This document shows, in pieces, positions 6,642-44,116 of a stretch of 64,000 nt of DNA (its first letter is position 1; each line of letters begins with the position of its first letter). The translations under genes were made by a program, and so were the position numbers. The stretch is from Lachnospiraceae bacterium (lineage in GTDB: Bacteria; Bacillota; Clostridia; Lachnospirales; Lachnospiraceae), in contig JAILLI010000068.1 in the NCBI GenBank assembly GCA_024693225.1, positions 13,929 to 77,928 of the forward strand, written 5' to 3'. The notes below the pieces were generated by a model that saw only the letters and a list, made by a program, of their open reading frames with translations, ran no database searches and was not told the DNA's origin.

Positions 6642-8417
6642 CTAGTTATGCTTTCCCTTCCTTCTCCTGTCATTTCCTTCTTTCATGTAATAGTCCGATT
6701 TCTGTGCGTTCATGCGCTGCTCTGCTTCCCGTCTCATATCTTCCACGGTCATCCCCTCCTTTTCCGAAGCACACACATAGCCCATTGAAACCGAAAGAGA
6801 GGGATGCAGCTTTCCTTTCCATCTGTCAAACCTGTCGCGAAGCTCCGATACTATCTCGGCCCTCTTTTCCGACGGGATCACGACAAGGGCAGAGAATTCA
6901 TCCCCACCGGTCCTGTATATGTCCCCGTAAGGTCCGAGAACGTCCTTGATACACTTGGCCGCACCTATTATCAGCTCGTCACCCGCCTCATGGCCGTGGC
7001 TGTCATTTGCCTCCTTGAGACGGTTCAAGTCAAAGGAAAAGAAGGTAAGGTCAGCTTCTATATCCTTTGCCGCGCGGCCGTCCATATGCTCATCAAAAGT
7101 CCTTCTGTTGTTGACATTGGTCATATGATCGATATGGGCCGTGGTGTTGAGGCTGTTCCTTGTCTTTTCTTCCTCCATAAGAGAATCTATGTTCCTGAAG
7201 CCGCAAACAAAGCGGACAACTCCCATATCATCCGTGACCCTTGCAAAACACAGCTGTATGTAATTCCTTGAGCCTTCCGGGTCCACCCTGAAGTAGTTCA
7301 CATGATATATCTCATCATCCTTTGTGGTGCGCATGAGGCTGTCTATGGATGTCATCAGATAGACCCGCTCACGGTCCTCAGGTACCACATAATGATCTAT
7401 ATAATTGCCGACGATCGTATCGTAGCTTCCTTCTTTTAACCTGTACATCTCGTCAGCAGCAGCCGACGGTTTGGTATTGTTGCGGATGAGCTTGGCATGG
7501 TGTATTGCCGCATCCACCAGCCAGATCGATTCATACTCGCATGAAAGTCCGGCCAGAAGGGTCATCTGGGTCTCGCGTTCACTCTCTCTCGCCAGCTTTT
7601 CACGGATCTGGGCATCATAATGTTCAAATCCGTATACTATCTTCCTCCCGTTGTCGAAGGGGATTATCTTCAGCCTGTAATATACTATCTTCCCGTCTCT
7701 TATGGTCCGGTAGGTATGGAAGACCGGATTGGTCTCCCTAAGGCGTTCCATAACGTAATCAAAATCCCCGAACCGTCTGACACCCTCGGCATCATCCCTG
7801 TATACGAACGCATTCACATAAACATCTATCACATTCTTAAGATAGGGATCACGGCTCAGCTCATCCTCAAGGGTCTTGCCATATCTGTTGAGTCTTACGG
7901 CACTTACCTTCCGGTCGCTCGTATCAACATATAAGACAGAGGTATAGGATCTTGCAATGGCATCATCTATCTCATAGAGGAGCTTCTGATGTTCCTTGAT
8001 CTCCTTCTCCTCCTCTCGGAAAAGAAAGCGGCGGGAACTGTCGGATATCTCATCATAGCGGACTATGCTGTATCTTCTCCCGTCCCTTGTGAATTCGTGT
8101 TTTCCGACGCAGTGTATGGTAAGGAGCTTTTTGTCCTTCCCCACAGCTTCATGGTATACCACATTGTAGTCTTCGTCTTTTTCGGAAAAAGCCTTTACAG
8201 CTTTTAGCATCTCTTCCTTTTCCGGCATGTTCACAAAAGGATCCGGTCCGTTAAGTCGGGACATCATCTCCTCGCGGGTCGCTTCGTACATGCTGCAGGC
8301 TCCCTCGGAGACAAGATATGCGCGAAACCTTCCGGTCTCATCAACATAGTAGATGGCCAGAGGGATCGGGGTATGCTCGTAAAACACGTGAATGTCGGGT
8401 GAAAATAATGGCTCCAT
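6642..8417 (-). CDS. Diguanylate cyclase (GGDEF) with large cytoplasmic N-terminal sensor region
   Basis: The C-terminal domain contains THIDHMTNVNNRRTFDEH and RTGGDEFSALV. A strong SD (AGGAGGAAGTT) precedes the ATG. Confidence 0.8.
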   Translation of the reverse strand: MEPLFSPDIHVFYEHTPIPLAIYYVDETGRFRAYLVSEGACSMYEATREEMMSRLNGPDPFVNMPEKEEMLKAVKAFSEKDEDYNVVYHEAVGKDKKLLTIHCVGKHEFTRDGRRYSIVRYDEISDSSRRFLFREEEKEIKEHQKLLYEIDDAIARSYTSVLYVDTSDRKVSAVRLNRYGKTLEDELSRDPYLKNVIDVYVNAFVYRDDAEGVRRFGDFDYVMERLRETNPVFHTYRTIRDGKIVYYRLKIIPFDNGRKIVYGFEHYDAQIREKLARESERETQMTLLAGLSCEYESIWLVDAAIHHAKLIRNNTKPSAAADEMYRLKEGSYDTIVGNYIDHYVVPEDRERVYLMTSIDSLMRTTKDDEIYHVNYFRVDPEGSRNYIQLCFARVTDDMGVVRFVCGFRNIDSLMEEEKTRNSLNTTAHIDHMTNVNNRRTFDEHMDGRAAKDIEADLTFFSFDLNRLKEANDSHGHEAGDELIIGAAKCIKDVLGPYGDIYRTGGDEFSALVVIPSEKRAEIVSELRDRFDRWKGKLHPSLSVSMGYVCASEKEGMTVEDMRREAEQRMNAQKSDYYMKEGNDRRRKGKHN

Positions 8418-25922: not shown

Positions 25923-25955
25923 AAGAAACAGCCGGTTATTACCCGGCTGTTTCTT
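25923..25955 (-). terminator. Strong hairpin terminating the peptide-export operon
   Basis: The hairpin is AAGAAACAGCCGG-(7 nt)-CCGGCUGUUUCUU, a 13-bp perfect stem. It starts 20 nt after the stop of the 48-aa peptide gene. The U-rich run lies within the 3' arm (UGUUUCUU) rather than after it. Confidence 0.6.
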
Positions 25956-25974: not shown

Positions 25975-26121
25975 TTATTGAAATCTCTCATTATCTATTC
26001 TTGGCATCTGTACACTAAGGCCTCCTGATGCATTATCCATCACTTCGTCCGAGATCATCTCTTCTGTCGTATTATCTTCTTCGTTATCAACCTCTGTCTT
26101 ATTCTTATTATTTTCTTCCAT
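25975..26121 (-). CDS. 48-aa double-glycine-leader precursor peptide B (not in the ORF track)
   Basis: Hand translation gives MEENNKNKTEVDNEEDNTTEEMISDEVMDNASGG/LSVQMPRIDNERFQ, then TAA. SD AAGGAGGG lies 7 nt upstream of the ATG at 26121. The leader is paralogous to that of the neighbouring 81-aa peptide. Confidence 0.7.
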   Translation of the reverse strand: MEENNKNKTEVDNEEDNTTEEMISDEVMDNASGGLSVQMPRIDNERFQ

Positions 26122-26146: not shown

Positions 26147-26392
26147 TCAAGCCGGCCCCAGATATTCTCTTCCGCATCCGCCGCATTCGTAGAGATGATA
26201 TCCTTCAGGTCCGTATCCTATTCTGTCTGCGTCGTCTGCTCCGCAAAACGGACAGTGACCACTATGCACTTTACACAGGCTGATCAGATTATCCCAGTCC
26301 ACCTTGTCCCAGTCAAATCCCCCACCGGCTTCATTGAGTTCTTCATCCGACAACATCTCTTCGCCCGTTTGCCCTTTTTTATTATATGTCAT
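26147..26392 (-). CDS. 81-aa double-glycine-leader precursor peptide A with Cys/His-rich zinc-ribbon-like core
   Basis: The product is MTYNKKGQTGEEMLSDEELNEAGGG/FDWDKVDWDNLISLCKVHSGHCPFCGADDADRIGYGPEGYHLYECGGCGREYLGPA. I prefer the second ATG (26392) because GGAGGG lies 7 nt upstream. The ORF-track start at 26407 has no properly spaced SD. Confidence 0.7.
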   Translation of the reverse strand: MTYNKKGQTGEEMLSDEELNEAGGGFDWDKVDWDNLISLCKVHSGHCPFCGADDADRIGYGPEGYHLYECGGCGREYLGPA

Positions 26393-26503
26393 AGCATAAC
26401 CCTCCATTTTCCTTTACATATTTTCACCCGGAAGATCAAAAATCCCATATCTCATTTTCGAAATCCGATCTTTTAAGTTATCTTTATTATACACAAAATA
26501 ATA

Positions 26504-28708
26504 TCACAAACATGTCACACTAAGCGCGAGCATTGTTATATCATCCGCCTGTTCGGCACCATCCGAATACGATGCGATATCATCTCTTACAAGTTTCAAT
26601 AAGCCTTTGCAATCCCTGTATCCATTACCGTTTAACAGTTTTTGAAGTCTTTCTTCTTCGTAAAATCCGCCCCCGCTGTCCCTTGCCTCGGTAACACCGT
26701 CCGTGTATATAAAGATCGCATCACCCGGACACAGCTTTATAGTGAACGTTTTGTATCCGGTATCCGCAAAAAGGCCGAGTATACGTCCTGATCTGTTCCT
26801 GACATACTCCCACCCGCCGTCATGATAAACAAGCGGCGGATTATGGCCGGCATTTACGCATTGAAGGATACCGGTTTTATGATCGAATACCCCGGCAAAT
26901 ACCGTAACAAACATATTCGCGTCATTGCCTTCACACAGTTTGAGGTTGGCATTCTTTATTGCTTCATCTATCCCGATACCGGACTCCATACATGAGTGTA
27001 TCTCGGTCTTGGCCGCCATCATGAACAGTGCAGCCGGGATCCCTTTACCTGATACATCGCCGACCACTATCCCTATCTTATCCTTTCCTATCCTGAAGAA
27101 ATCGTAAAAATCTCCCCCTACCTCCCTTGCAGGATCCATAGATGCATATATATCCATCGATCCGATATCAGGGAAAGCCGGAAAATCGGTCGGGAGTGCA
27201 TTTCCCTGGATATCCGCAGCTATAGACAGCTCGCGTTCGATACGCTCACTGATCTCATCCATGGACCGCTCCAGCGACTCCACGGTCTTATTGATGCCTT
27301 CCGAAAGTGCTGAAAACTCGACTAACCCGCCTACACCTACCCGTTCATCAAGAGCACCTTCCGTTATCTTATGAAGAGAAGCATTTGCTTTATCGATCCT
27401 GCTTACTATTACATGTTCAAGAAGCAGCCGGGTTGTGATAAGTGTAAGTGCAAGGATCGAGAAAGTGATCAGAAGTGACCAGTAAAGTGAAGCAGTTCTG
27501 CCCTTCAGGACCTTTTTCGAATCACACACGACAATATAGTACATGTCATCGAACTTTCTTACTACGCTGTACGTATATATATTTTTTCCTTCATCCGCAA
27601 AATCCTCGGAATAAATGGTGAAGTACTTCTGCCCGGACAGATGATCAAAGAATTCACCGGCAGTAGGAAATCCCCCAAAATAATATCCCCCGCAGAATTC
27701 TTCCAGGGTCCGCCCCAGATGGTAATCCGAATTGGCCCCTACGGCAATACCGTCTTTGAAAACAGCCACTCCGAAATCATTTACAGGATCATATCCTTTT
27801 GCCACTTCATCAATATCTATCCCAAACTCTTTAATATACCTCCTCATCCGGCTGATATCGTACTCCGCATCGCTCACGCTCTGTTCTATGAGCCGGTCAG
27901 TGATCATGAAAAACTGAACGGCAGCAGCGATCATAAAGACATTAAAGGCGATAAGAAACAGCCGGGTTGTGAAGATCTGTCGGACACTTCGCTCGGCGGA
28001 AGCTCTTTGGTCATCGCCTATCAGGCGGTACAGCACCACAGCAGCCGTTCCGGCAAAAAGGGTTTCCAAACCGGCCGTAACGAACGCATAGCTTTTGATA
28101 TATTCCCCCCTGACGTAGGAAAGGACCTGGGGGATCGTCATCTGCCTGTTCATATATTCAGGGGCCATGATAAACAGGTATTCAAAATACAGGGTCAGAT
28201 CTGCTGCCATAAACACTGCCAGGATGGAACATACCATGGCAATGCATTTCTTTGTATCGCTTTTGATCCTGCTCACGATCAGATAAAAGATCATTCCGAG
28301 CAGAAATCCGGCAACAGCAAACGCAACAACGAACCCTATCGGATTAACATGGTTTTTTTCCTCTTCGTCCAGCGGTATATAATACGCGTGAAGAAGCGAT
28401 ACGGTTCCGACAAAGAGGCCGAATATCCCGCCCCGGATCGGGCCAAACAAAAGTGCGCCCACAGCTACCGATACTATCACAAGCCTCAGGTTAAACTCGA
28501 ACAATACCGTCCCGGCTGAGATCTCAAAATGCCTGAAGTCCGCTCCCATCATGATCATTGATAGGCTGAAAACCACCAAGGTTGCGGCAACGGCCCGTTT
28601 CATATTATCACCATGGAGCCGCATTAAGCCTGCCCAATGTATGATGTTTTCTTTTTCTTCTTTTTCCCGACTGTCCATCACCTGTTCACTGTACAAACGT
28701 GAATGCAT
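26504..28708 (-). CDS. Polytopic membrane sensor phosphatase: multi-TM N-terminus, extracytoplasmic domain, HAMP-like linker, PP2C (SpoIIE/RsbU family)
   Basis: The first 280 aa or so contain about 8 hydrophobic segments. A soluble segment of about 110 aa follows, bounded by a further TM (LYWSLLITFSILALTLITTRLLL). The PP2C blocks are GGDFYDF, VVGDVSGKGIPAALFM, NAGHNPP, YTDGVTEA and DDITMLAL. The start is uncertain between 28708 and 28678 (MDSREKEE). Confidence 0.8.
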   Translation of the reverse strand: MHSRLYSEQVMDSREKEEKENIIHWAGLMRLHGDNMKRAVAATLVVFSLSMIMMGADFRHFEISAGTVLFEFNLRLVIVSVAVGALLFGPIRGGIFGLFVGTVSLLHAYYIPLDEEEKNHVNPIGFVVAFAVAGFLLGMIFYLIVSRIKSDTKKCIAMVCSILAVFMAADLTLYFEYLFIMAPEYMNRQMTIPQVLSYVRGEYIKSYAFVTAGLETLFAGTAAVVLYRLIGDDQRASAERSVRQIFTTRLFLIAFNVFMIAAAVQFFMITDRLIEQSVSDAEYDISRMRRYIKEFGIDIDEVAKGYDPVNDFGVAVFKDGIAVGANSDYHLGRTLEEFCGGYYFGGFPTAGEFFDHLSGQKYFTIYSEDFADEGKNIYTYSVVRKFDDMYYIVVCDSKKVLKGRTASLYWSLLITFSILALTLITTRLLLEHVIVSRIDKANASLHKITEGALDERVGVGGLVEFSALSEGINKTVESLERSMDEISERIERELSIAADIQGNALPTDFPAFPDIGSMDIYASMDPAREVGGDFYDFFRIGKDKIGIVVGDVSGKGIPAALFMMAAKTEIHSCMESGIGIDEAIKNANLKLCEGNDANMFVTVFAGVFDHKTGILQCVNAGHNPPLVYHDGGWEYVRNRSGRILGLFADTGYKTFTIKLCPGDAIFIYTDGVTEARDSGGGFYEEERLQKLLNGNGYRDCKGLLKLVRDDIASYSDGAEQADDITMLALSVTCL

Positions 28709-28988
28709 CTGTAAGTCCCGTCATATTAAATAACTCATATATTTTTTCCTGAGGATGCAAAAGTCTGAACTTTCCTCCTCTTGAAGTTGTCATTCTGGCT
28801 GTACCGACAAATACACGTATTCCCGCGGATGAAATATAATCCGTCAAGGTAAGATCGATATCTATATCGACTACTTCCGCCGGGAGCGCGTTTACTTCAT
28901 CCTGAAGCTCGCTTGCGGTCATGGCATTCAGTTCCCCTTCCATCCTTATCGTCGCTTTGCTTCCTTCAATAATGCTTTCAACTGTCAT
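28686..28988 (-). CDS. STAS-domain protein (anti-sigma-factor antagonist, SpoIIAA/RsbV-like)
   Basis: The protein is 100 aa. The DYISSAGIRVF block contains the Ser normally phosphorylated in this family. Confidence 0.8.
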   Translation of the reverse strand: MTVESIIEGSKATIRMEGELNAMTASELQDEVNALPAEVVDIDIDLTLTDYISSAGIRVFVGTARMTTSRGGKFRLLHPQEKIYELFNMTGLTDAFTFVQ

Positions 28989-29009: not shown

Positions 29010-31199
29010 TTAGTCGCCTTCAACCTGCTGTCTCTTTACAAGATCGGCAAATGCGCCGTTTTGTGCGATAAGTTCATCGTAAGTACCGTCTTCTGCGATA
29101 TGTCCTTCATCAAGAACTATGATCCGGTCACAATTCTTTATTGTTGAAAGTCTGTGTGCGATAACTATACGTGTGCAGTTAAGAGATGAAAGGGAATCCG
29201 AAACCTTCTTCTGGGTGATATTGTCGAGTGCACTCGTTGCCTCATCAAACAGCAGTATCTTCGGTTTCGGTGCTATAGCTCTTGCTATCATGATGCGCTG
29301 CTTCTGTCCGCCTGAAATACCTCCGCTTCCTTCGGAAATAAGCGTAAACATACCCATCGGCATTTCTCTTATGTCATCTTCCATTCCTGCAAGCCTTGCA
29401 GCCTCCATGGCTTCTTCGAGGGTCAGCCCCGGAGCGGATATGGCTATATTTGTGAACAGGTCTCCGGAGAAGAGTTTTCCGTCCTGCAGCACGGTTCCGA
29501 TACGGCTGCGAAGAGATTTCTGATCGATGTTTCTCAGATCTTTTCCGTCATAATACACAGAACCCTTCTGCGGTGTCTCAAAACCGAGAAGTATCCTGAG
29601 CAGCGTCGATTTACCGCAGCCGGTCTTACCGGTTATCGCAACATACTGTCCGGGCTTTATCTTCAGAGTGATATTGTCAAGGACATTCGGCATATCATTG
29701 CGATAGCGAAACGTTACATTATTCAGTTCGATAGCTCCGCTCAGGTTTTCCAGGACGGGCTTATCCTCTGCTATCTCCGGTACGGTTTCCATGATCGGCT
29801 GTACCATTTTGATCGTCGAGATTATCTGCGAGATGCTCCCGGCTATACCTGCAAGCGAAAGGATCGCCCCGCTCATCATCCCGTATGCCGAATTGAAAGC
29901 ATAGTACTCCGATACCGAAACGCCGGAACCGATGGCCACCGCATAAAGGAGGATAGTCCCGAACAGGGATATAGTCATATTGATGATAGCTGTATACCTG
30001 ACAAACAGGGGCGGATTATATTTGATCTCCGAATTCTTCGCATAAAGATTTCCCCATTTTGCAAATGCCCGCCTCTCGGAACCGGACAGCCTTATCTTCT
30101 GGATACCGGATACAAGTGCAAAAGACATACCGCTCTCAACCGTCTCGGTCTCCATAAGCTTTCTGTTCTTACGTGTGGAGGCAAGGATCGACATTGTCGC
30201 AACAGCAAGTGTCACAAGTGTCAATATGACCGCAGGGGCTGCAAGTGCCGGGGTATAATGAAATATCTGAAAAACATAAACCACGGAGAAAAGCGCGGTC
30301 ACACTTGTTGACATACCTATGTCGACGACCTTTGTTATAAGAACATTCATATATCCCACACGGTTTGTCAGATCACCCGTCGAATACTTTTTGAAGAATG
30401 ATGAAGGCAGGGACAATATCCTCATCATGGTAGCTGCCTCCACACTCTGGTCAAGTTTTACGGATATCTTTCCCAGGACCAGGCTTTTGATCCCGCCGAA
30501 CAGGATCACGCTCACGGATACACTTATCATAAATACCGCTATGGCTATAAGCGCCCGGATACTTCCGCTCTCAATGACATCGGAGAACAGCATCCTGTTT
30601 ATCCAGGGCAGGAGCATACCGATAAGGGATACCAGGCCCGCAAAGGCGAGATATGTGATAAAGGCTCCTCTGTTTATGTTGTCAAATATATAGATCAGTA
30701 TTTCCTTAAACCCCAGCTTCTTTAACGGAAAGGGCTTATAAAAAGCGACCGCCTCATCGGAAAAGAGACTTTCCGTATGCGAGGTTACTTTTTTATATGC
30801 TCCGGTTACGGGATCAAGGTATTTGTAGCCGGTAAACTCCCTCGGGATAAGCGCAACAGGCTGCCCGTCAGCCGAATATGTTGTAAGCAATGCCCCCGAA
30901 GCGTCTTTGCGCCAGCCGCGTGCCAGTCTGACGGTCCTTGTCATTATCCCATGCGGGCGAAGCAGGTATTCGAGCACTTCATCAACTTTCTTTAAGGCGC
31001 CGGGGATCTCGATCATTTTGACATGATAATAATTCAGGATGTTTCCGATAGCATCCTTTGTCCGCTCCCTCTCATCATTAAGGGCGAGCGAAAGGCGCCT
31101 TCCCATAACGGATCCCGCGATCCTGATACAGGAAGCCTCAAAAGCCTCCCGGTCCGCCTTCTCTCTTGAATTTATCTGTTCTTCAACCCAATTGATCAT
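29010..31199 (-). CDS. ABC exporter (TMD-NBD) without active peptidase domain, NHLM/NHLP-bacteriocin-system type
   Basis: The N-terminal domain of about 150 aa has no catalytic Cys motif. Six TM segments follow. Walker A is GKTGCGKST, the signature is ISGGQKQR, and Walker B is LLFDEATSALD. Confidence 0.8.
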   Translation of the reverse strand: MINWVEEQINSREKADREAFEASCIRIAGSVMGRRLSLALNDERERTKDAIGNILNYYHVKMIEIPGALKKVDEVLEYLLRPHGIMTRTVRLARGWRKDASGALLTTYSADGQPVALIPREFTGYKYLDPVTGAYKKVTSHTESLFSDEAVAFYKPFPLKKLGFKEILIYIFDNINRGAFITYLAFAGLVSLIGMLLPWINRMLFSDVIESGSIRALIAIAVFMISVSVSVILFGGIKSLVLGKISVKLDQSVEAATMMRILSLPSSFFKKYSTGDLTNRVGYMNVLITKVVDIGMSTSVTALFSVVYVFQIFHYTPALAAPAVILTLVTLAVATMSILASTRKNRKLMETETVESGMSFALVSGIQKIRLSGSERRAFAKWGNLYAKNSEIKYNPPLFVRYTAIINMTISLFGTILLYAVAIGSGVSVSEYYAFNSAYGMMSGAILSLAGIAGSISQIISTIKMVQPIMETVPEIAEDKPVLENLSGAIELNNVTFRYRNDMPNVLDNITLKIKPGQYVAITGKTGCGKSTLLRILLGFETPQKGSVYYDGKDLRNIDQKSLRSRIGTVLQDGKLFSGDLFTNIAISAPGLTLEEAMEAARLAGMEDDIREMPMGMFTLISEGSGGISGGQKQRIMIARAIAPKPKILLFDEATSALDNITQKKVSDSLSSLNCTRIVIAHRLSTIKNCDRIIVLDEGHIAEDGTYDELIAQNGAFADLVKRQQVEGD

Positions 31200-31211
31200 A
31201 TTATTATCCGA

Positions 31212-33398
31212 TCATTCGCATGTTACCAGTTCTTTGTATCTTCCGTTATTATTCATAAGCGTCTCATGCCGGCCCCGTTCTATGACCTTTCCGCGATCAA
31301 GAACGATTATCTCATCACAGTCTCTTATGGTTGAAAGTCTGTGGGCAATGACGATGCAGGTTATTCCACGTCTTTTGATGGAACGGATGACTTCATACTC
31401 GGTCTTGCCATCAAGAGCACTTGTTGCTTCGTCAAGTATTATCAGTCTGGGATCCTGGGCAAGTACACGTGCTATCTCTAGACGCTGCCGCTGTCCGCCC
31501 GAAAGATCCCTTCCGTTTTCGCAGAGCCTGTAATTGTAACCGCCATCCCTGTTCATTATGTGCTCATGCAGCTGTGCATCTTTGGCTGCCATGATCATTT
31601 CATAATCTTCAATGGTGTCGTCCCACATTTTAATATTTGCTGATATCGTATCCTCAAAAAGGATGACATCCTGATCAACAACAGCAACTGATCCGGTAAA
31701 GATATTTCTGTCTATTTCCTTAATGTGTTTTCCGTCATACAGTATCTGTCCGCTCCACGGTTGATAAAGGCCGCTTATCAGCTTCCCGATGGTGGATTTC
31801 CCGCACCCTGAAGATCCGACTATAGCCACACTTTTTCCGCTTTTAAGTTCAAGGTTAAAATCTTCTATGAGCGGAGGTGCAAGCCTGGCATATCCGAACG
31901 TGACATGTTGTATTGAAATGTTTCCGGAAAGCTTGTCTTTAGGCTCCGAGGTGGAAGGATTTACATCAACGGCCAGGTTTTCGTCTCTCGGATATTCCAT
32001 TACATCCTCGATACGCTCCATCTGGCTCCTCATTTCCTGAATACTCTTACCGGCATTGACGAATGATCTGGCCGGAGCAAGAAAGCCTGACAGAAATCCC
32101 TGAAATGCAATGACCATACCGGGTGTATACTTACCCTTTATCACAAGATACACTCCCATGATGAGGATGATATCATTGACTACCGCTGTTGCGATCTCCG
32201 GAATGGTACCGATAGATGCCCCAAGCCTCTCAAATCTGACGTTCTGGGTGTTAACACTTGCCTGATAACCTGCCCATTTGCGGAAATACCCGTTTTCAGC
32301 CCCACTGCTCTTTATTGTATCTATCATATTGATACCGCTGGAGGTGGCCGATATCAGTTTTGATTCATCCCGCATCTGAACACGGGTTATATTTACCCTC
32401 TTTTTGCTGATTATCCTTGTCAGAATGAAGTTTATCAGTATCGAAGATATGCCGACCATTGTCATGCTTACGGAATACCGGAGCATTACCACCAGATAGA
32501 AAACAAGCATTGCCGAATCGATAAACAAAGGAGCGATCATATTTATGAGCGAGTCCGCGATCCCGGCATTGCTGCGGCGTCTGCCCTCTATGTCTCCGGC
32601 CATCCTCTGCGAGAAGAACTCCATCGGAAGACACAGCACATGCCAGAAATATGTCGCATTTCCTATAGCTGCGAACTTTCCGCTTATGCGAAGTGAATAT
32701 ATTGTCCTTATCCATTCGGAAACTATCTGAAGAAAAGCAACAGAACTGATCAGAATAAGAAAAGGGATCACAAGTGCGGGATTTTCGCCCGAAAGGAGAT
32801 CATCCATAAAGAATCTCGACAGTCCCGACATCAGGATCGAAAAAAAAGCAGCCAAAGCCGTTGTTATTGTAACAAAAGCAACGGCACCGCCGGTCCCCTT
32901 CAGTCGTTTTGCGGCAAACGCTTTCACACTTGCAGGTTTTCCCGAAGGTTCAAATCCCTCATCGGGCTCGAATATTATACATATGCCTGTGAAAGAGGTG
33001 TTGAATTCTTCCTCTGAAACGGTAACGGTCCCCCGGGCAGGATCATTAAGATATGCATTGCCGCCTTTAAAGCCTTTTAAGACCACAAAGTGATTCATGT
33101 TCCAGTGGATCACACAGGGGAAATTACCTTTTTCCTTCAGCCTCTGCGGACTGTACCTGTATCCCTGGGCTTTGAGGCCGTATGCTCTCGCCGCACGTGC
33201 AATATTTCCGGCCCTGGACCCGTCCCTTGATACCCCACAGTCCTTACGGGTCTGCTCAAGCGGGATCCACTTCCCGTAATATGCCAGTACCATGGCAAGG
33301 CAGGCGGCTCCGCATTCAAGGGCCTCCATCTGCATGATCACGGGTACTTTTGCAACACCATTTGCTATGGGCGCGTTGTTTGCTTTACGTCTGAACAT
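31212..33398 (-). CDS. Peptidase-C39-containing ABC exporter (PCAT)
   Basis: The N-terminal C39 domain has the catalytic Cys context QMEALECGAACLAMV, plus HFVVL and NDPA. The TMD follows. The NBD has GSSGCGKST, LSGGQRQR and IILDEATSALD. Confidence 0.9.
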   Translation of the reverse strand: MFRRKANNAPIANGVAKVPVIMQMEALECGAACLAMVLAYYGKWIPLEQTRKDCGVSRDGSRAGNIARAARAYGLKAQGYRYSPQRLKEKGNFPCVIHWNMNHFVVLKGFKGGNAYLNDPARGTVTVSEEEFNTSFTGICIIFEPDEGFEPSGKPASVKAFAAKRLKGTGGAVAFVTITTALAAFFSILMSGLSRFFMDDLLSGENPALVIPFLILISSVAFLQIVSEWIRTIYSLRISGKFAAIGNATYFWHVLCLPMEFFSQRMAGDIEGRRRSNAGIADSLINMIAPLFIDSAMLVFYLVVMLRYSVSMTMVGISSILINFILTRIISKKRVNITRVQMRDESKLISATSSGINMIDTIKSSGAENGYFRKWAGYQASVNTQNVRFERLGASIGTIPEIATAVVNDIILIMGVYLVIKGKYTPGMVIAFQGFLSGFLAPARSFVNAGKSIQEMRSQMERIEDVMEYPRDENLAVDVNPSTSEPKDKLSGNISIQHVTFGYARLAPPLIEDFNLELKSGKSVAIVGSSGCGKSTIGKLISGLYQPWSGQILYDGKHIKEIDRNIFTGSVAVVDQDVILFEDTISANIKMWDDTIEDYEMIMAAKDAQLHEHIMNRDGGYNYRLCENGRDLSGGQRQRLEIARVLAQDPRLIILDEATSALDGKTEYEVIRSIKRRGITCIVIAHRLSTIRDCDEIIVLDRGKVIERGRHETLMNNNGRYKELVTCE

Positions 33399-33410: not shown

Positions 33411-33635
33411 CTATCTGATGATATAGGTGATCGGTGCAACAGTTTTTCTTCCGGTATCCGTATTGATCGTGACCGTACCGAAAACTGCCCAGATAAATAT
33501 ACCTGCAAGAAGGATGATGACCGCCGTAAGGATCATCCACATTGAGGGCGTGGTGACTTTTATATAATCATCGAGTTGCTCCGGTGACTGTAATTTATCA
33601 AGAGTTTCCTTACGGAACAGTTTTTGTCGGTCCAT
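33411..33635 (-). CDS. 74-aa membrane protein resembling only the N-terminus of NHLM/NHLP-type HlyD secretion proteins
   Basis: The product is MDRQKLFRKETLDKLQSPEQLDDYIKVTTPSMWMILTAVIILLAGIFIWAVF... A strong SD (AGGAGGG) precedes the ATG. The gene lies 12 nt upstream of the PCAT gene. Confidence 0.65.
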   Translation of the reverse strand: MDRQKLFRKETLDKLQSPEQLDDYIKVTTPSMWMILTAVIILLAGIFIWAVFGTVTINTDTGRKTVAPITYIIR

Positions 33636-33657: not shown

Positions 33658-34860
33658 TTAATCCCTATAGATCAACGAGAACGCATAGCCCTCAAAGTTG
33701 ACGGCCGCGGTAACTGTGGCAGGGTTCATATCAGTATCGGCATATGTCCGGGTCCTGCCGTTCTTGTCGAGTGCCATGACGGCGAATGCTCTGCCGCCCT
33801 TCCGGTACTCCATGGGAACGATGATCGTCAGCACTCCGTTCTTTACGGTATCGTCAACCTTGCCGTTTATGGCCATGTTGAAAGAAAATACTTCCTTCCA
33901 TCCGGCTGTACGGTCAGCATTAAAGACTGCCTGTGCGGCAGGACCCTGTTTGGTCTTCCCCATCGCAAGCCCGTATACCGGCTGTCCGTTTATGGCCATA
34001 AACCCTTCAACGGTATCGGGGTTGACTGCTGCAGCTTTGATCTCTTTATCATCATCGTCATCATGTCCGGGCTCGGGCGAAGGATGAGGATCATCTTCAA
34101 TAACAACATCATTTATAGTGATAATATCCTTCAGGCCCTGTATCCTCCAGACACCTTTCCCCCGTTTGCTTATACACTCAGGGTGATCTGACGATCCGAG
34201 CTTTGTGATGATCTTACCCCTGTCTCTGGCAGAAACATCAATGTATCCGCCCTCCCATACCCAAACTTTCCAGTCGGGCAGCTGTTCACTATGATATGCT
34301 GCTTCGGGACCGCTGACCTTCATATCATCCCATTCTTCTCCGTTGTCCGAATCTTCGATAGCGATCTCAAACATTTCCTTTGAAGCGCTCTTACCTGTAA
34401 CGGTGCCTGCACTGCCATCGCTGTTGTGAAGATTTGCTTCCACCGTTCCGCTGTTATTTGTTACCTCTGCACCGGCATAATTGATCTTGACCCTGCCTCC
34501 GTCATTAACAACCTTTGCGTAGTTTCTTGTTACCTTACCGGCATTGGAGCCGACCACCTCTCTGTTGATCAGAATATCACCGTCTTCGGCATTTTCTTTG
34601 ACGGTGCCCAGATTATTTGTGATATCCCCCTTGTTTGTTGTGACCGTGCTTTTTTCGGAAACCTCACTGATGCTTCCGTTGTTGGTCCCGACATTATGAC
34701 CGTTCGTACTGTTGATCACTTCGTTTGCAGCGATCACATCAACATCCTTTGTGAGATTGTCGTGATCATCGACCGGCAGGGCCGCAGATACACTTATCGG
34801 GGCTGCTATAACGACAGCACACGTTAGAGAGATCATCTTTTTCAATATTGATCTATACAT
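33658..34860 (-). CDS. Secreted protein of unknown function (Asn/Gly/Val-rich repeat N-terminal half, acidic linker, beta-rich C-terminal half)
   Basis: I prefer the start at MYRSILKKMISLTCAVVIAAPISVSA/ALP (ATG 34860, AAGGAGG 12 nt upstream). The ORF track starts at 34887. This is a Sec-type signal peptide with no double-glycine leader. Confidence 0.6.
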   Translation of the reverse strand: MYRSILKKMISLTCAVVIAAPISVSAALPVDDHDNLTKDVDVIAANEVINSTNGHNVGTNNGSISEVSEKSTVTTNKGDITNNLGTVKENAEDGDILINREVVGSNAGKVTRNYAKVVNDGGRVKINYAGAEVTNNSGTVEANLHNSDGSAGTVTGKSASKEMFEIAIEDSDNGEEWDDMKVSGPEAAYHSEQLPDWKVWVWEGGYIDVSARDRGKIITKLGSSDHPECISKRGKGVWRIQGLKDIITINDVVIEDDPHPSPEPGHDDDDDKEIKAAAVNPDTVEGFMAINGQPVYGLAMGKTKQGPAAQAVFNADRTAGWKEVFSFNMAINGKVDDTVKNGVLTIIVPMEYRKGGRAFAVMALDKNGRTRTYADTDMNPATVTAAVNFEGYAFSLIYRD

Positions 34861-34992
34861 AAAACAAATATACCTCCTTGACGACATGGTTTAAGCCAAA
34901 GACCTGACTCGGTTATTATACAATATACAGGCTTTATACGTCTATATCATTAGATAAGTACCGGCCATTTCTTTACTTATTCATTTCTTATG

Positions 34993-41412: not shown

Positions 41413-43257
41413 TCACCTCTTGTGTTTTGCCCTTTTTTCCTTGTACATTTCCTGGTCCGCCAGCTCTATCAGGCTGGAAAGCGGCTTGTTATTGTTATAG
41501 GGGACCATGTGATAGCCTATGCTGGCATCAAGGGTGTACCTTCTTTCCTCATCATCAATTTCGTTCAGCTCACGCATGGCCTTCCGTATCCTCTCGATGC
41601 TCTCCTCAACTTCACTGTCACTCCTGCCCTTGCCGAACATGACAAATTCATCTCCGCCGTACCTCATAAGGAGCTCGTCCTTATTGCGTATCTTGCGCAA
41701 TACATCAGCCATGTCGCATATCATCCTGTCTCCCATCTCATGTCCGAGCGCATCATTTACCTTCTTGAGGCCGTCAAGATCCAGGAAGATAAAGTACATG
41801 TTCTCACGTAAGGTGGCGGCTTCCTGCATGATCTTCTCGGAGAACTTGAAAAAGCCCGCACGGTTATAAACGTGTGTCATGGGATCGAACACCCACATCT
41901 CGTCAAGGGTCTTGATCATCTTCTGCATCTTGCGCACGTTGTGGACCTGCTCAAAGGCTGATGAAAGGGTCATCATAAGGACCCTGTAGAACTCCGAAAA
42001 GAGAGGCATCGTGGAATTGCGTATGGATGCCAGACCGTAGAACCGGTCCCTGTAATGGAGTGAATATACTATAAAGAGATTGCCGCCCTTATCCGGATCG
42101 AACTTGGGGTGGCGTTCGAGAGCCGTCTCATTTACTATGTTAAGGAACTCCCCGTTCCTGTATGATATACCGCTTACGGGTGAAGTTGTAAGATCCGTAC
42201 TCTCCGGGTCATCAAACATGCTGATCACAAAGGCATCCCCTCCAAGCTCCGGTATACGGCTCTTTAGCGAGGTGCATATCTCCTCAATGGACACTGCATT
42301 TGTCAGCTCAACCGTCAGCTCGCTTATCATCTCCGCATATCTTGCCTCGCGGAGCTTGTTGCGCGAATACTGGTTTACGACAAGCCGGTGGTTGACCGGA
42401 CGCACGGCATTGCATCCGCAGCTCTCGGCAAAAACAGCCTGGGATGATATCACGGGATCGGCATCATATCTCTTTTTTTCTATGGCACGGATAACGTTCT
42501 TGTAGGCGGTCTCACCTATCTTCTTTTCAAAGCGGTTGACACTGGTGATACGGGGGTAATGGTTGGCAGCCTCGAAGATGTTGTCGTATCCGGACAGTAT
42601 GGTGTTTTCCGGAACGCGTATCCCCCTGTCGTTGAGGGCATAAAATGCTCCGAGGGCCATCTGGTCATTGGCACATACGTATGCATCGGCTTCGAGAAGA
42701 CCCATGGACTCAAAATGCCTTACAGCAGCCCTTCCGCTCCTGGCATAGTAATCTCCCGAATAGCACCGTCTCTCGTCAAGCACCATTCCCGCCTTCTCCA
42801 TCTCCTCCGAGAAGACCCGCTTACGGATGACGGCATCTATCGAATCCTCCGGACCGCCTATGTAATTGACGATCCTGATGCCGTGTTCCTCGATCAGATG
42901 CTTTGAAAGGGCCCGCATGGCGCTCTCGTTGTCACTGCTGACATTTATCATGCCGTCTATGGGAAAATCTATGGAGGCACACGGCTTGTTCTGGCTTAAT
43001 ATCTTGTCGATGACTACCTGCCTGATCTTCTCCGAGTAGATGCTCTCCGCATAGATGATAAAGCCGTCATAGACCGAAAAATCATCATGGAGCATGGCAG
43101 CGCTCTCACCCTCGTTGAAATCATCATCGACCGAGAGTGTCAGACAGTAAACGACAATATTGTTGCCGTCTTCCTTTGCCGCCTCGGCTATTCCTTCAAG
43201 GACCTTACGCTGCGTATCTAATTGTAGTTCACCAAGAAAAAAAGCTATATTACGCAT
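41413..43257 (-). CDS. Cytoplasmic diguanylate cyclase with LacI/periplasmic-binding-protein-like sugar-binding N-terminal domain
   Basis: The N-terminal half resembles a Peripla_BP ligand domain (IVNYIGGPEDS, CANDQMALGAF). The C-terminal GGDEF domain contains RYGGDEFVMF. I place the start at MRNIAFFLG (43257) to avoid overlapping the patatin gene. Confidence 0.75.
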   Translation of the reverse strand: MRNIAFFLGELQLDTQRKVLEGIAEAAKEDGNNIVVYCLTLSVDDDFNEGESAAMLHDDFSVYDGFIIYAESIYSEKIRQVVIDKILSQNKPCASIDFPIDGMINVSSDNESAMRALSKHLIEEHGIRIVNYIGGPEDSIDAVIRKRVFSEEMEKAGMVLDERRCYSGDYYARSGRAAVRHFESMGLLEADAYVCANDQMALGAFYALNDRGIRVPENTILSGYDNIFEAANHYPRITSVNRFEKKIGETAYKNVIRAIEKKRYDADPVISSQAVFAESCGCNAVRPVNHRLVVNQYSRNKLREARYAEMISELTVELTNAVSIEEICTSLKSRIPELGGDAFVISMFDDPESTDLTTSPVSGISYRNGEFLNIVNETALERHPKFDPDKGGNLFIVYSLHYRDRFYGLASIRNSTMPLFSEFYRVLMMTLSSAFEQVHNVRKMQKMIKTLDEMWVFDPMTHVYNRAGFFKFSEKIMQEAATLRENMYFIFLDLDGLKKVNDALGHEMGDRMICDMADVLRKIRNKDELLMRYGGDEFVMFGKGRSDSEVEESIERIRKAMRELNEIDDEERRYTLDASIGYHMVPYNNNKPLSSLIELADQEMYKEKRAKHKR

Positions 43258-43267
43258 ATATATGATT

Positions 43268-44116
43268 TTATCCCAAACCGAGAAAACGTTCAAGGGCAGG
43301 CATGAGTTCCGTTGCTTCGCTTCTTCCAAGCTCATAGGCCTCTCTCATGACAAGAGGATCATGGCACAGGTGTCCTAATGGCAGGGGGGATTTGGGACAT
43401 ATGACGAAGTTGTCCCCCTCCTTTTCCCGCCTTAAGCAGTATTCGAACTGGTCGTTATAACTTATATGTCTTATCTGCATCGCATGGACGAGAGCCGGGT
43501 ATGCCCTGTATTTGAGCCTTACAAGGGGCATGGTCCTGTCCGGGCTCTTCCTGTAGCCCCGGGGCTTTGTAAGAACGGTCACGTTCCGCTTGCACCCCAG
43601 TGCCTCCGAAGCCTTAAGGGGGATCGAATCCGATACTCCTCCGTCAAGATAATTTCCTCCGCCTATATGGACTATGTTGGACACAAGGGGCATGGAGGAA
43701 CTAGCCCTCATCCACTCAAGCTCCTCATAGGAGGCATCCTTCATCAGGTGATATCCCGCTTCACCGGTATCAACATCGGTGACCACAACATAAAAGGGAA
43801 TGCCCGAGGCCACAAAAGCCTCCTCGTCAAACCTGTCAAGCTCCACGGGAAGGGTATGATAGCAAAACTCGGCCCCGAAGATATCCCCGGTCTTTATAAG
43901 AGATGAAAAACTGCAGTACCTCTTATCCTTTGCGTACTTCATGTTATAACGGATGGTCCTGCCGGTCTGTCCGGATACATAATTGCATCCGAAGCAGGCG
44001 CCCGCGCTCACTCCGATAACATTATCAAACCTTATCCCGTTTTCCATGAGGACATCGAGCACTCCCGCGGTAAAAAGGCCCCGCATGGCTCCGCCCTCGA
44101 GAACAAGTCCCGTCAT
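43268..44116 (-). CDS. Patatin-like phospholipase
   Basis: The oxyanion motif is LEGGAMRG, the nucleophile motif is GVSAGA, and a catalytic-dyad Asp is present in DGG. Confidence 0.85.
   Translation of the reverse strand: MTGLVLEGGAMRGLFTAGVLDVLMENGIRFDNVIGVSAGACFGCNYVSGQTGRTIRYNMKYAKDKRYCSFSSLIKTGDIFGAEFCYHTLPVELDRFDEEAFVASGIPFYVVVTDVDTGEAGYHLMKDASYEELEWMRASSSMPLVSNIVHIGGGNYLDGGVSDSIPLKASEALGCKRNVTVLTKPRGYRKSPDRTMPLVRLKYRAYPALVHAMQIRHISYNDQFEYCLRREKEGDNFVICPKSPLPLGHLCHDPLVMREAYELGRSEATELMPALERFLGLG

Follow-up and report, generated by a model that had tools for sequence, protein, structure and literature searches.

The stretch of DNA analysed here (the window, 64,000 nucleotides) comes from a Lachnospiraceae bacterium of rumen type (GCA_024693225.1, contig JAILLI010000068.1, positions 13,929 to 77,928 of the forward strand), and it contains a minus-strand operon for peptide export that ends in genes for two small peptides with double-glycine leaders. 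The first of these, at 26147-26392, is the subject of this report. It probably encodes an unmodified exported mini-protein, in which a 25-residue leader precedes a 56-residue acidic core made of a helix and a Cys4 zinc ribbon, and which belongs to the operon of a LahT-like exporter; export, cleavage and metal binding are what we infer for it. The known cargo of double-glycine leaders and of the ATP-binding cassette transporters that contain a peptidase (PCATs) comprises short pheromones, amphipathic bacteriocins and enzymatically processed RiPPs (peptides made on the ribosome and modified after translation). Such leaders and exporters are well understood. Zinc ribbons are, to our knowledge, otherwise almost exclusively intracellular.

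The precursor gene and its leader

The gene consists of the following elements, where L007 (a near-identical strain) and L008 denote related loci.

26147-26392, minus strand: gene of the zinc-ribbon double-glycine precursor, 81 amino acids by translation, stop codon at 26147-26149
26400-26405, minus strand: ribosome-binding site GGAGGG, separated from the ATG by a 7-nt spacer; the same GGAGGG also precedes the genes of the L007 and L008 homologues
26318-26392, minus strand: double-glycine leader, residues 1-25, MTYNKKGQTGEEMLSDEELNEAGGG, ending in LSDEELNEAGGG, with predicted cleavage after G25
26150-26317, minus strand: core, residues 26-81, 56 amino acids, 6.2 kDa, isoelectric point (pI) 4.55, net charge about -6
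26243-26254, minus strand: first zinc knuckle, C47-P-F-C50, then G51, read from the sequence
26174-26185, minus strand: second zinc knuckle, C70-G-G-C73, read from the sequence

Translation of 26147-26392 on the minus strand gives MTYNKKGQTGEEMLSDEELNEAGGGFDWDKVDWDNLISLCKVHSGHCPFCGADDADRIGYGPEGYHLYECGGCGREYLGPA, identical to the 81-residue sequence of the initial annotation. The start codon is the ATG at 26390-26392 (minus strand), and the 81-residue reading is taken as correct because the longer open reading frame (ORF) from 26407 begins inside the ribosome-binding site. The database protein identical to the precursor, P0001, is labelled a hypothetical protein of a Lachnospiraceae metagenome-assembled genome.

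With cleavage after G25, the leader carries Leu at -12, Ser at -11, Asp at -10, Glu at -8, Leu at -7, Ala at -4 and Gly at -2 and -1 (G24-G25), and the match to the double-glycine consensus claimed earlier for positions -12, -11, -8, -7, -2 and -1 is found there as L, S, E, L, G and G. The register is set by the alignment of homologues, in which A-x-G-G is followed by F/Y-D-W. Cleavage after G24 was considered and rejected: it would place Glu at both -4 and -7, and the homologues align with F/Y directly after A-x-G-G.

A regular expression for double-glycine leaders matched this ORF alone among 1378 ORF-start variants of the window. A stricter expression gave 13 matches, to double-glycine or Nif11-leader peptides, in related loci as against none in a reversed-sequence control, and at least two CxxC motifs occurred in 9 of these 13 peptides, compared with 29 of 3196 background small ORFs (0.9%); the 13 are not independent, because paralogues are included among them. 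Judged by sequence pattern, the combination of leader and knuckles exceeds chance.

A promoter-like element precedes the gene, and in alignment TGACA-N21-TAT(A/T)AT is kept upstream of three zinc-ribbon cargo genes, namely that of the window and those of L008 (about 1425-1460) and L007 (about 1445-1480). The 21-nt spacing is atypical for sigma-70, and a scan for consensus sigma-70 sites found no convincing promoter before the precursor gene; the element may be an activator site combined with a -10 box, or the promoter of an alternative sigma factor. An Rfam scan of the window from 20 to 40 kb matched no RNA family.

The core and its predicted fold

The initial annotation had described two knuckles, CPFC and CGGC, 19 residues apart (C50 to C70), together with an extra Cys and three His. 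All of these residues are present (C40, H43, H46 and H66 besides the knuckles), but C40 varies, being replaced by F, F and H in the homologues, as do two of the three His, and these residues therefore fall outside the zinc-ribbon signature. The grand average of hydropathy (GRAVY) of the core is -0.46.

AlphaFold was run twice, with 4 and with 11 aligned sequences, and both models show a disordered leader followed by a helix and a three-stranded sheet. Residues 1-25 are disordered, with a predicted local distance difference test score (pLDDT) below 50, and the core is modelled at a pLDDT of about 78-82 with a helix at residues 33-43 and strands at 55-60, 65-70 and 76-80. In a Foldseek comparison with the PDB the top neighbours were mostly zinc ribbons (eL43, aIF2-beta, RPB9, NrdR, VdcD, Elf1 and Trm112). 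The helix-and-three-strand model and these neighbours, though none of the latter is significant, support the zinc-ribbon fold that had been suggested for the core.

Sequence comparison points the same way: the sub-threshold zinc-ribbon matches in Pfam and NCBIfam were to InsA, IS1595, Lar and L37ae, and the only phmmer matches outside the family were proteins of repeated InsA/IS1-type zinc ribbons (E = 1e-6 to 1e-3). A sequence search of the PDB with the precursor returned nothing significant. Motif, conservation and predicted topology together thus give good support to a zinc ribbon as the putative fold. Two short motifs of the core may be recorded in their own right: D-W-[DEN]-K, just after the predicted cleavage site (within residues 27-35), resembles the aromatic-x-x motifs of cyclophane-forming radical SAM enzymes, and H43-x3-C47-x2-C50 equals the ZAS anti-sigma motif HxxxCxxC.

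Homologues and conservation

A word-indexed search covering 5.8 billion clusters returned the precursor itself as its sole match, while an exhaustive phmmer search, run over 1.84 billion representatives, brought two true homologues to light, to which a profile search added a third. The family therefore stands at four clusters, P0001, P0002, P0015 and P0003, which are 50-63% identical. Every one of the four clusters retains the leader, the GG and, without change, the knuckle cysteines C47, C50, C70 and C73 along with the Gly that follows each knuckle; D-W-x-K (D-W-[DEN]-K) after the GG and K41-x-H43 are likewise conserved in 4 of 4. The initial annotation had made its interpretation depend on the presence of the leader in orthologues, and had pointed to the four CxxC cysteines as residues to follow among homologues: the leader is found in every homologue, and none of the four cysteines varies.

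Pairwise ratios of nonsynonymous to synonymous substitution (dN/dS) against the homologues are 0.1-0.3 for the core and 0.46-0.9 for the leader. Because the value for the core lies below that for the leader, the core appears as a constrained folded unit, not as a hypervariable RiPP core.

When GTDB representative genomes, JGI metagenome contigs and IMG/VR viral contigs were scanned with the family alignment, no confirmed relative came up, and tblastn of plasmids found no relative of the precursor. No Pfam or NCBIfam family covers it, and all members in the databases are unnamed hypothetical proteins.

The export operon and its surroundings

A minus-strand block of about 9 kb, with the cargo gene last but one in it, stands inserted among housekeeping genes: glnA, ANTAR, aminotransferase, glmS and pur genes and the ATP synthase lie on one side and purA on the other. 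The operon encodes, in order, a short HlyD-like protein, the PCAT, a second ABC protein, a STAS protein, a membrane PP2C phosphatase and the two double-glycine peptides.

33411-33635, minus strand: 74-aa membrane protein with an HlyD-like N-terminus (TIGR03794, positions 1-45 of 421, 34 bits against a cut-off of 156)
31212-33398, minus strand: PCAT, LahT-like, with C39 peptidase, ABC permease and ATPase (TIGR03796, 881.6 bits against a cut-off of 853.3; Peptidase_C39, 3.7e-34)
29010-31199, minus strand: second ABC permease/ATPase, NHLP-type, lacking a peptidase domain (TIGR03797, 720.5 bits against a cut-off of 709.4)
28686-28988, minus strand: STAS anti-sigma-factor antagonist (TIGR00377, 66.9 bits, above the cut-off; Pfam STAS)
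26504-28708, minus strand: membrane sensor phosphatase, 734 aa, HAMP and PP2C/SpoIIE (Pfam SpoIIE, 5e-52; weak HAMP match)
26486-26517, minus strand: promoter-like element TGACA-N21-TATAAT, overlapping the stop codon of the phosphatase gene; candidate function
25975-26121, minus strand: second double-glycine peptide, 48 aa, leader ending in EEMISDEVMDNASGG, 14-aa core LSVQMPRIDNERFQ, 25 nt downstream of the zinc-ribbon gene
25926-25952: GC-rich, terminator-like hairpin, AAACAGCCGG-TTATTAC-CCGGCTGTTT, at the end of the cargo genes; conserved in L007
25832-25924, plus strand: 3' remnant of a third, convergent double-glycine peptide whose leader is deleted, recognised by comparison with L007

Small homologues of the 74-aa HlyD-like protein adjoin the PCAT in L014, L019 and L039. 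The STAS protein keeps the context of the phosphorylatable Ser, DYISSAG. A hydropathy scan of the phosphatase gives about seven transmembrane helices and an extracytoplasmic loop of about 140 aa (residues 264-405), which sits between the N-terminal helix bundle and the helix preceding HAMP. The synteny of phosphatase and exporter is conserved. An RsbW-like kinase, sought to complete a partner-switching set, was not found in the window; nor was any radical SAM homologue found in its 64 kb, any other modifying enzyme in the operon or in the 20 kb to each side of it, or any immunity-like gene in the operon or the remainder of the window. No small membrane protein gene lies between the phosphatase gene and the terminator.

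Two further observations concern the surroundings. Directly upstream of the export cassette, a 409-aa protein (33658-34887, minus strand) has an N-terminal signal-like segment, N-x-G-T-V-like repeats and an Asp-rich stretch; it has no significant family match and no homologue in the related loci. The window also encodes two GGDEF diguanylate cyclases (41413-43335 and 6642-8417, both minus strand), one of them with a sensor domain like a periplasmic binding protein. STAS/PP2C modules such as SiaABCD control diguanylate cyclases, and by analogy those of the window may be relevant to its own STAS/PP2C module.

Predicted leader recognition by the PCAT peptidase

The first 150 residues of the PCAT are 69% identical to LahT150 (PDB 6MPZ) over 143 residues (E = 1e-68). 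Its C39 catalytic residues, Cys29, His103 and Asp119, are intact together with Gln23 and align with those of LahT and PCAT1; the catalytic residues of LahT are Cys27, His101 and Asp117 (PMC6363468), to which C29, H103 and D119 correspond. LahT150, the excised double-glycine protease of Lachnospiraceae C6A11, cuts very diverse substrates, requires only the final 13 residues of the leader and relies on hydrophobic residues at -4, -7 and -12, whereas -3, -5 and -8 are free (PMC6363468). When the leader of the window is set against the determinants of LahT150 and PCAT1, L-12 and L-7 are present and -4 is Ala, which is small and uncharged; A or V stands at -4 in all peptides of the locus.

The signature [LMI]-[STN]-D-x-x-[LM]-x-x-A-x-G-G is common to every cargo candidate at the locus and in its two closest relatives, peptides with unrelated cores included, as would be expected of substrates that share one peptidase pocket. 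The size of the cargo raises no difficulty: PCAT1 exports a 66-residue cargo from a cavity of about 15,000 cubic angstroms, with specificity residing in the leader alone (PMC6959990), and a 56-residue core would therefore fit the exporter.

Other cargo peptides and variation of the locus

The second double-glycine peptide has the ribosome-binding site AAGGAGGG, shares the leader signature and is conserved in L007. Its 14-aa core is unrelated to the zinc ribbon, in line with the earlier remark that the precursor is paired with a cargo of wholly different core. The third peptide is intact in L007 (2041-2223, minus strand; 60 aa, MSEEIKNENDETILNDKTLDQASGG|VAHRPELKSELKSELKSGSDPGADTPANGDVFALV), and in the window a deletion of about 146 bp took its leader.

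The zinc-ribbon gene directly follows the phosphatase gene in both L007 and L008. In L007 it is duplicated, with copy 1 accompanied by the 61%-identical P0002, and this second paralogue is absent from the window. Downstream of the L008 orthologue come a SPASM fragment (truncated, about 100 aa), a Nif11-leader peptide and a more distant double-glycine peptide, P0017 (CPVC...CNNGH).

Related precursors in rumen Coriobacteriia

Homologues of the phosphatase in GTDB genomes all belong to ruminant-gut Coriobacteriia (31-37% identity). There the HAMP-PP2C phosphatase continues at its C-terminus into an RsbW-like kinase domain, giving proteins of about 870-890 aa (L014 9923-12586, L033 9989-12607 and most of L010-L055), a domain that the phosphatase of the window (26504-28708) lacks. 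The cassette of PCAT, second ABC protein, STAS and PP2C recurs in Coriobacteriia at L014, L019, L033, L034, L039, L049 and L062. Beside the STAS/PP2C and exporter cassettes of Coriobacteriia stand pheromone-sized double-glycine or Nif11-leader peptides with short cores of 12-25 aa (L014 12701-13021, L033 19890-20075, L010 14362-14550 and L034 15836-16042, all minus strand), which parallel the 48-aa peptide of the window.

Profile searching brought up two further groups of precursors. The first consists of Nif11-leader precursors with short zinc-ribbon cores (P0018, P0020 and P0022). The second, the CAATVE precursors P0016, P0019 and P0021 (135-157 aa), carries a zinc ribbon after the invariant motif D-R-D-W-L-T-x-G-C-A-A-T-V-E-x-x-S-W-C-x-S-x-D-x-C, and each member adjoins an uncharacterised radical SAM/SPASM enzyme of 472-482 aa that falls below every NCBIfam equivalog cut-off. 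CAATVE precursors and their paralogues occur in several tandem copies at L058 (3211-4693) and L062 (9442-15260), and also at L049.

An hhalign comparison of the window family with the CAATVE family gave 95% probability (E = 3.5e-8) and spanned the leader, the GG, the D-W motif and both knuckles; the Cys-rich motif of the CAATVE precursors, of about 15 residues, is an insertion absent from the window family. The SPASM fragment of L008 is homologous to the CAATVE-adjacent radical SAM/SPASM enzymes (E = 1e-12 to 1e-14). The simplest history that these sequences suggest is that the window family was derived from a radical-SAM-modified zinc-ribbon precursor, with the enzyme and its target motif lost and the leader and the ribbon kept. 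In the same terms, the 25-residue leader is effectively the last third of a Nif11-type leader.

Weighing the explanations

The proposal of the initial annotation, an exported zinc ribbon, draws support from the leader found in all homologues, a co-directional PCAT with an intact C39 domain, the leader signature shared among the cargo peptides and the predicted fold; each computational check that might have refuted it turned out in its favour. Several points weigh against it. Three genes separate the cargo gene from the PCAT. The Foldseek comparison with the PDB gave no significant match (best E-value 0.07) and the confidence of the model is moderate only, while no curated zinc-ribbon family is reached at its cut-off (Pfam Zn_ribbon_InsA, 15.6 bits against 26.1; NCBIfam Lar, 18.4 against 39.6). 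The leader has Ala at -4, and the variants of that position tested with LahT150 were V, T, K and D, not A (PMC6363468). PCAT cargo is thought to travel unstructured (PMC6959990), and zinc bound by the Cys4 site while still in the cytoplasm could make the core resistant to export. Relatives of the precursor adjoin radical SAM enzymes, and the copy in L008 adjoins a SPASM remnant. The family, finally, is tiny, with four clusters, probably from one habitat type.

One alternative makes the product a RiPP precursor: its Cys residues or D-W-x-K would be crosslinked, in thioether or cyclophane fashion, by a radical SAM/SPASM maturase whose gene lies in another part of the genome, so that the CxxC motifs would be sites of modification and not metal ligands. 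The homology of the window family to the CAATVE precursors, each beside its radical SAM/SPASM enzyme, the C-terminal SPASM fragment that follows the orthologue of L008 and the conservation of D-W-[DEN]-K directly after the GG all speak for it, and because of this kinship to Nif11-leader, radical-SAM-associated precursors a modified peptide is retained as a minor rival. It is nevertheless unlikely. No radical SAM homologue lies in the 64-kb window and no modifying enzyme within 20 kb, and the SPASM gene of L008 is only a truncated remnant of about 100 aa. The window family lacks GCAATVE-SWC-x-S-x-D-x-C, the most plausible target of the enzyme, its core is more conserved than its leader, and the knuckles CPxCG and CxxCG are canonical metal sites. 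Moreover, since the CAATVE family retains the ribbon in addition to the Cys-rich motif, the zinc ribbon is a separate module.

An unmodified class II bacteriocin, in which the four Cys form two disulfides after export and the product kills related bacteria, would agree with the double-glycine leader and the PCAT, with four conserved Cys that could pair in principle, and with a number of cargo genes that varies by strain (the duplicate of L007, the deletion of the window) as is typical of bacteriocin loci. The properties of the core make this about equally unlikely: its pI of 4.55, charge of -6 and GRAVY of -0.46 are unlike those of cationic, amphipathic class II bacteriocins, and in the predicted model the knuckles sit on a beta-hairpin scaffold with the geometry of a metal site. 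The operon has no immunity-like small membrane protein, the precursor matches none of the NCBIfam bacteriocin families, and in a strict gut anaerobe, at low redox potential, disulfides would be disfavoured.

A cytoplasmic zinc regulator with a coincidental GG, such as a ZAS-like anti-sigma factor or a partner-switching component acting with the adjacent STAS and PP2C proteins, is highly improbable and was rejected. In its favour, zinc ribbons are for the most part known from the cytoplasm, the STAS and SpoIIE genes come immediately before this gene, and H43-x3-C47-x2-C50 agrees with HxxxCxxC, the ZAS motif, without variation among the four close homologues. Against it, there is no Pfam zf-HC2 or anti-sigma match, the predicted fold is one helix and a beta ribbon instead of a helical anti-sigma domain, disorder is predicted for residues 1-25, and a PCAT cassette accompanies the gene in every case. 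The rejection rests on the leader signature, which is conserved as a whole and recurs both in unrelated peptides encoded next to it and in Nif11-leader precursors.

Relation to known systems

The system is of a known kind, a double-glycine-leader substrate of a LahT-like, NHLP-type exporter, and its cargo is new. The likeness to LahT and the LahA peptides of Lachnospiraceae bacterium C6A11 (PMC6363468) extends to a C39 domain 69% identical, the same catalytic triad, varied cargo on one type of leader and, as a prediction for the window, recognition through -12, -7, -4 and the GG. The LahA peptides differ in having full-length Nif11 leaders and short cores (core masses of about 2.4-2.7 kDa for LahA4 and LahA7; PMC6363468), as compared with a 25-aa leader, Ala at -4 and a 56-aa zinc-ribbon core in the window, and the source paper on LahT (PMC6363468) makes no mention of STAS or a phosphatase.

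PCAT1 and its substrate CtA of Clostridium thermocellum (PMC6959990) resemble the present pair in proportions, with 24 and 66 residues of leader and core there and 25 and 56 here, in recognition through the leader only, and in that CtA is an unmodified small protein. The C39 domain of PCAT1 is distantly related (E = 1e-15), however, and a single transporter takes the place of the two ABC proteins encoded here; CtA is described as lacking structure while in the transporter, and the paper reports no metal site for it (PMC6959990).

As to families, both ABC components reach the equivalog cut-offs of the NHLP/Nif11 bacteriocin export cassette, an HlyD-like relative is adjacent and the cargo is of the double-glycine type. 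In the window the HlyD-like protein has only 74 aa, there is no maturase, and STAS and a membrane PP2C are inserted in the operon. The precursor, whose leader has only 25 aa, gave no match at E up to 0.1 to the NHLP/Nif11 leader families TIGR03798 and TIGR03793. The cassette itself, as TIGR03794/TIGR03796/TIGR03797, was reportedly described by Haft et al. in 2010 (cited in PMC6363468).

The core shares with InsA/IS1-type and other Cys4 ribbons (Zn_ribbon_InsA, Lar, eL43, RPB9/TFS and the NrdR N-terminus) the CPxCG and CxxCG motifs flanking a beta-hairpin and the G-Y...Y-x-C spacing; those are cytoplasmic modules that bind nucleic acid or protein and have no export leader, and all matches to them are sub-threshold. 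The CAATVE precursors, uncharacterised and present in rumen Coriobacteriia and others, are related by profile and share the same cassette of exporter, STAS and PP2C, but three features set them apart from the window family, which has none of these: a Nif11 leader of 65-70 aa, the Cys-rich motif (about 15 residues) and a neighbouring radical SAM/SPASM enzyme.

The initial annotation had called a zinc-ribbon mini-domain an unusual PCAT cargo. No such cargo appears in Pfam, in NCBIfam or in the literature library searched in full text, which gave nothing relevant on zinc ribbons together with double-glycine, Nif11, bacteriocin or the CAATVE motif. The size, by comparison, is ordinary, as CtA has 66 residues (PMC6959990).

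Proposed mechanism and function

For the exported zinc-ribbon protein favoured here, the precursor would be made from the end of the export operon and possibly from its own promoter-like element as well. By analogy with LahT and PCAT1, the C39 domain would bind the leader through L-12, L-7 and A-4 and cut after G25, and the transporter would move the metal-free, unfolded 6.2-kDa core across the membrane. The reducing gut would keep the four knuckle thiols reduced, and once outside the cell the core would fold on binding Zn or some other metal, all of this with no need for a modifying enzyme.

Because the core is acidic, hydrophilic and conserved and has no neighbouring immunity gene, a soluble ligand or effector is favoured over a membrane-permeabilising bacteriocin, and a pore-forming one is unlikely on the grounds of the same acidity and hydrophilicity and the missing immunity gene. 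Outside the cell the protein could bind to the sensor phosphatase as its ligand, act as an effector of specific antagonism, or serve as a metal-binding factor. For a receptor, or for a regulator of export, the co-encoded pair of phosphatase and STAS protein comes to mind first. The STAS protein may control a sigma factor or, in a more speculative analogy with the STAS protein MlaB, the ABC ATPases; the NCBIfam mlaB model matches it only weakly.

A tentative and, on balance, unlikely extension is that the zinc-ribbon protein, the 14-residue peptide or both are secreted signals sensed by the phosphatase loop of about 140 residues, upon which the phosphatase would dephosphorylate the STAS protein and so control the exporter or a sigma factor. 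If it were true, this would be peptide quorum sensing in which a partner-switching module replaces the histidine kinase and response regulator and in which the signal is an extracellular metal-folded protein.

Significance

The exported zinc ribbon would surprise specialists in RiPPs and bacteriocins, although the proposal concerns a tiny family and its functional steps are drawn by analogy. It can be tested by a simple assay, since LahT150, already in wide use as a reagent, is closely related to the protease domain encoded here. If the proposal is true, PCAT exporters would also deliver metal-dependent mini-proteins outside strict anaerobes, which raises the question of how a high-affinity metal site stays unfolded until export. 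The analysis further exposes an undescribed set of related precursors, some of them beside radical SAM enzymes, and a conserved link in rumen bacteria between peptide export and a STAS/PP2C partner-switching module. Should the signalling model hold, the occurrence of this rumen cassette in two phyla would mark it as a shared, horizontally spread module of communication or competition.

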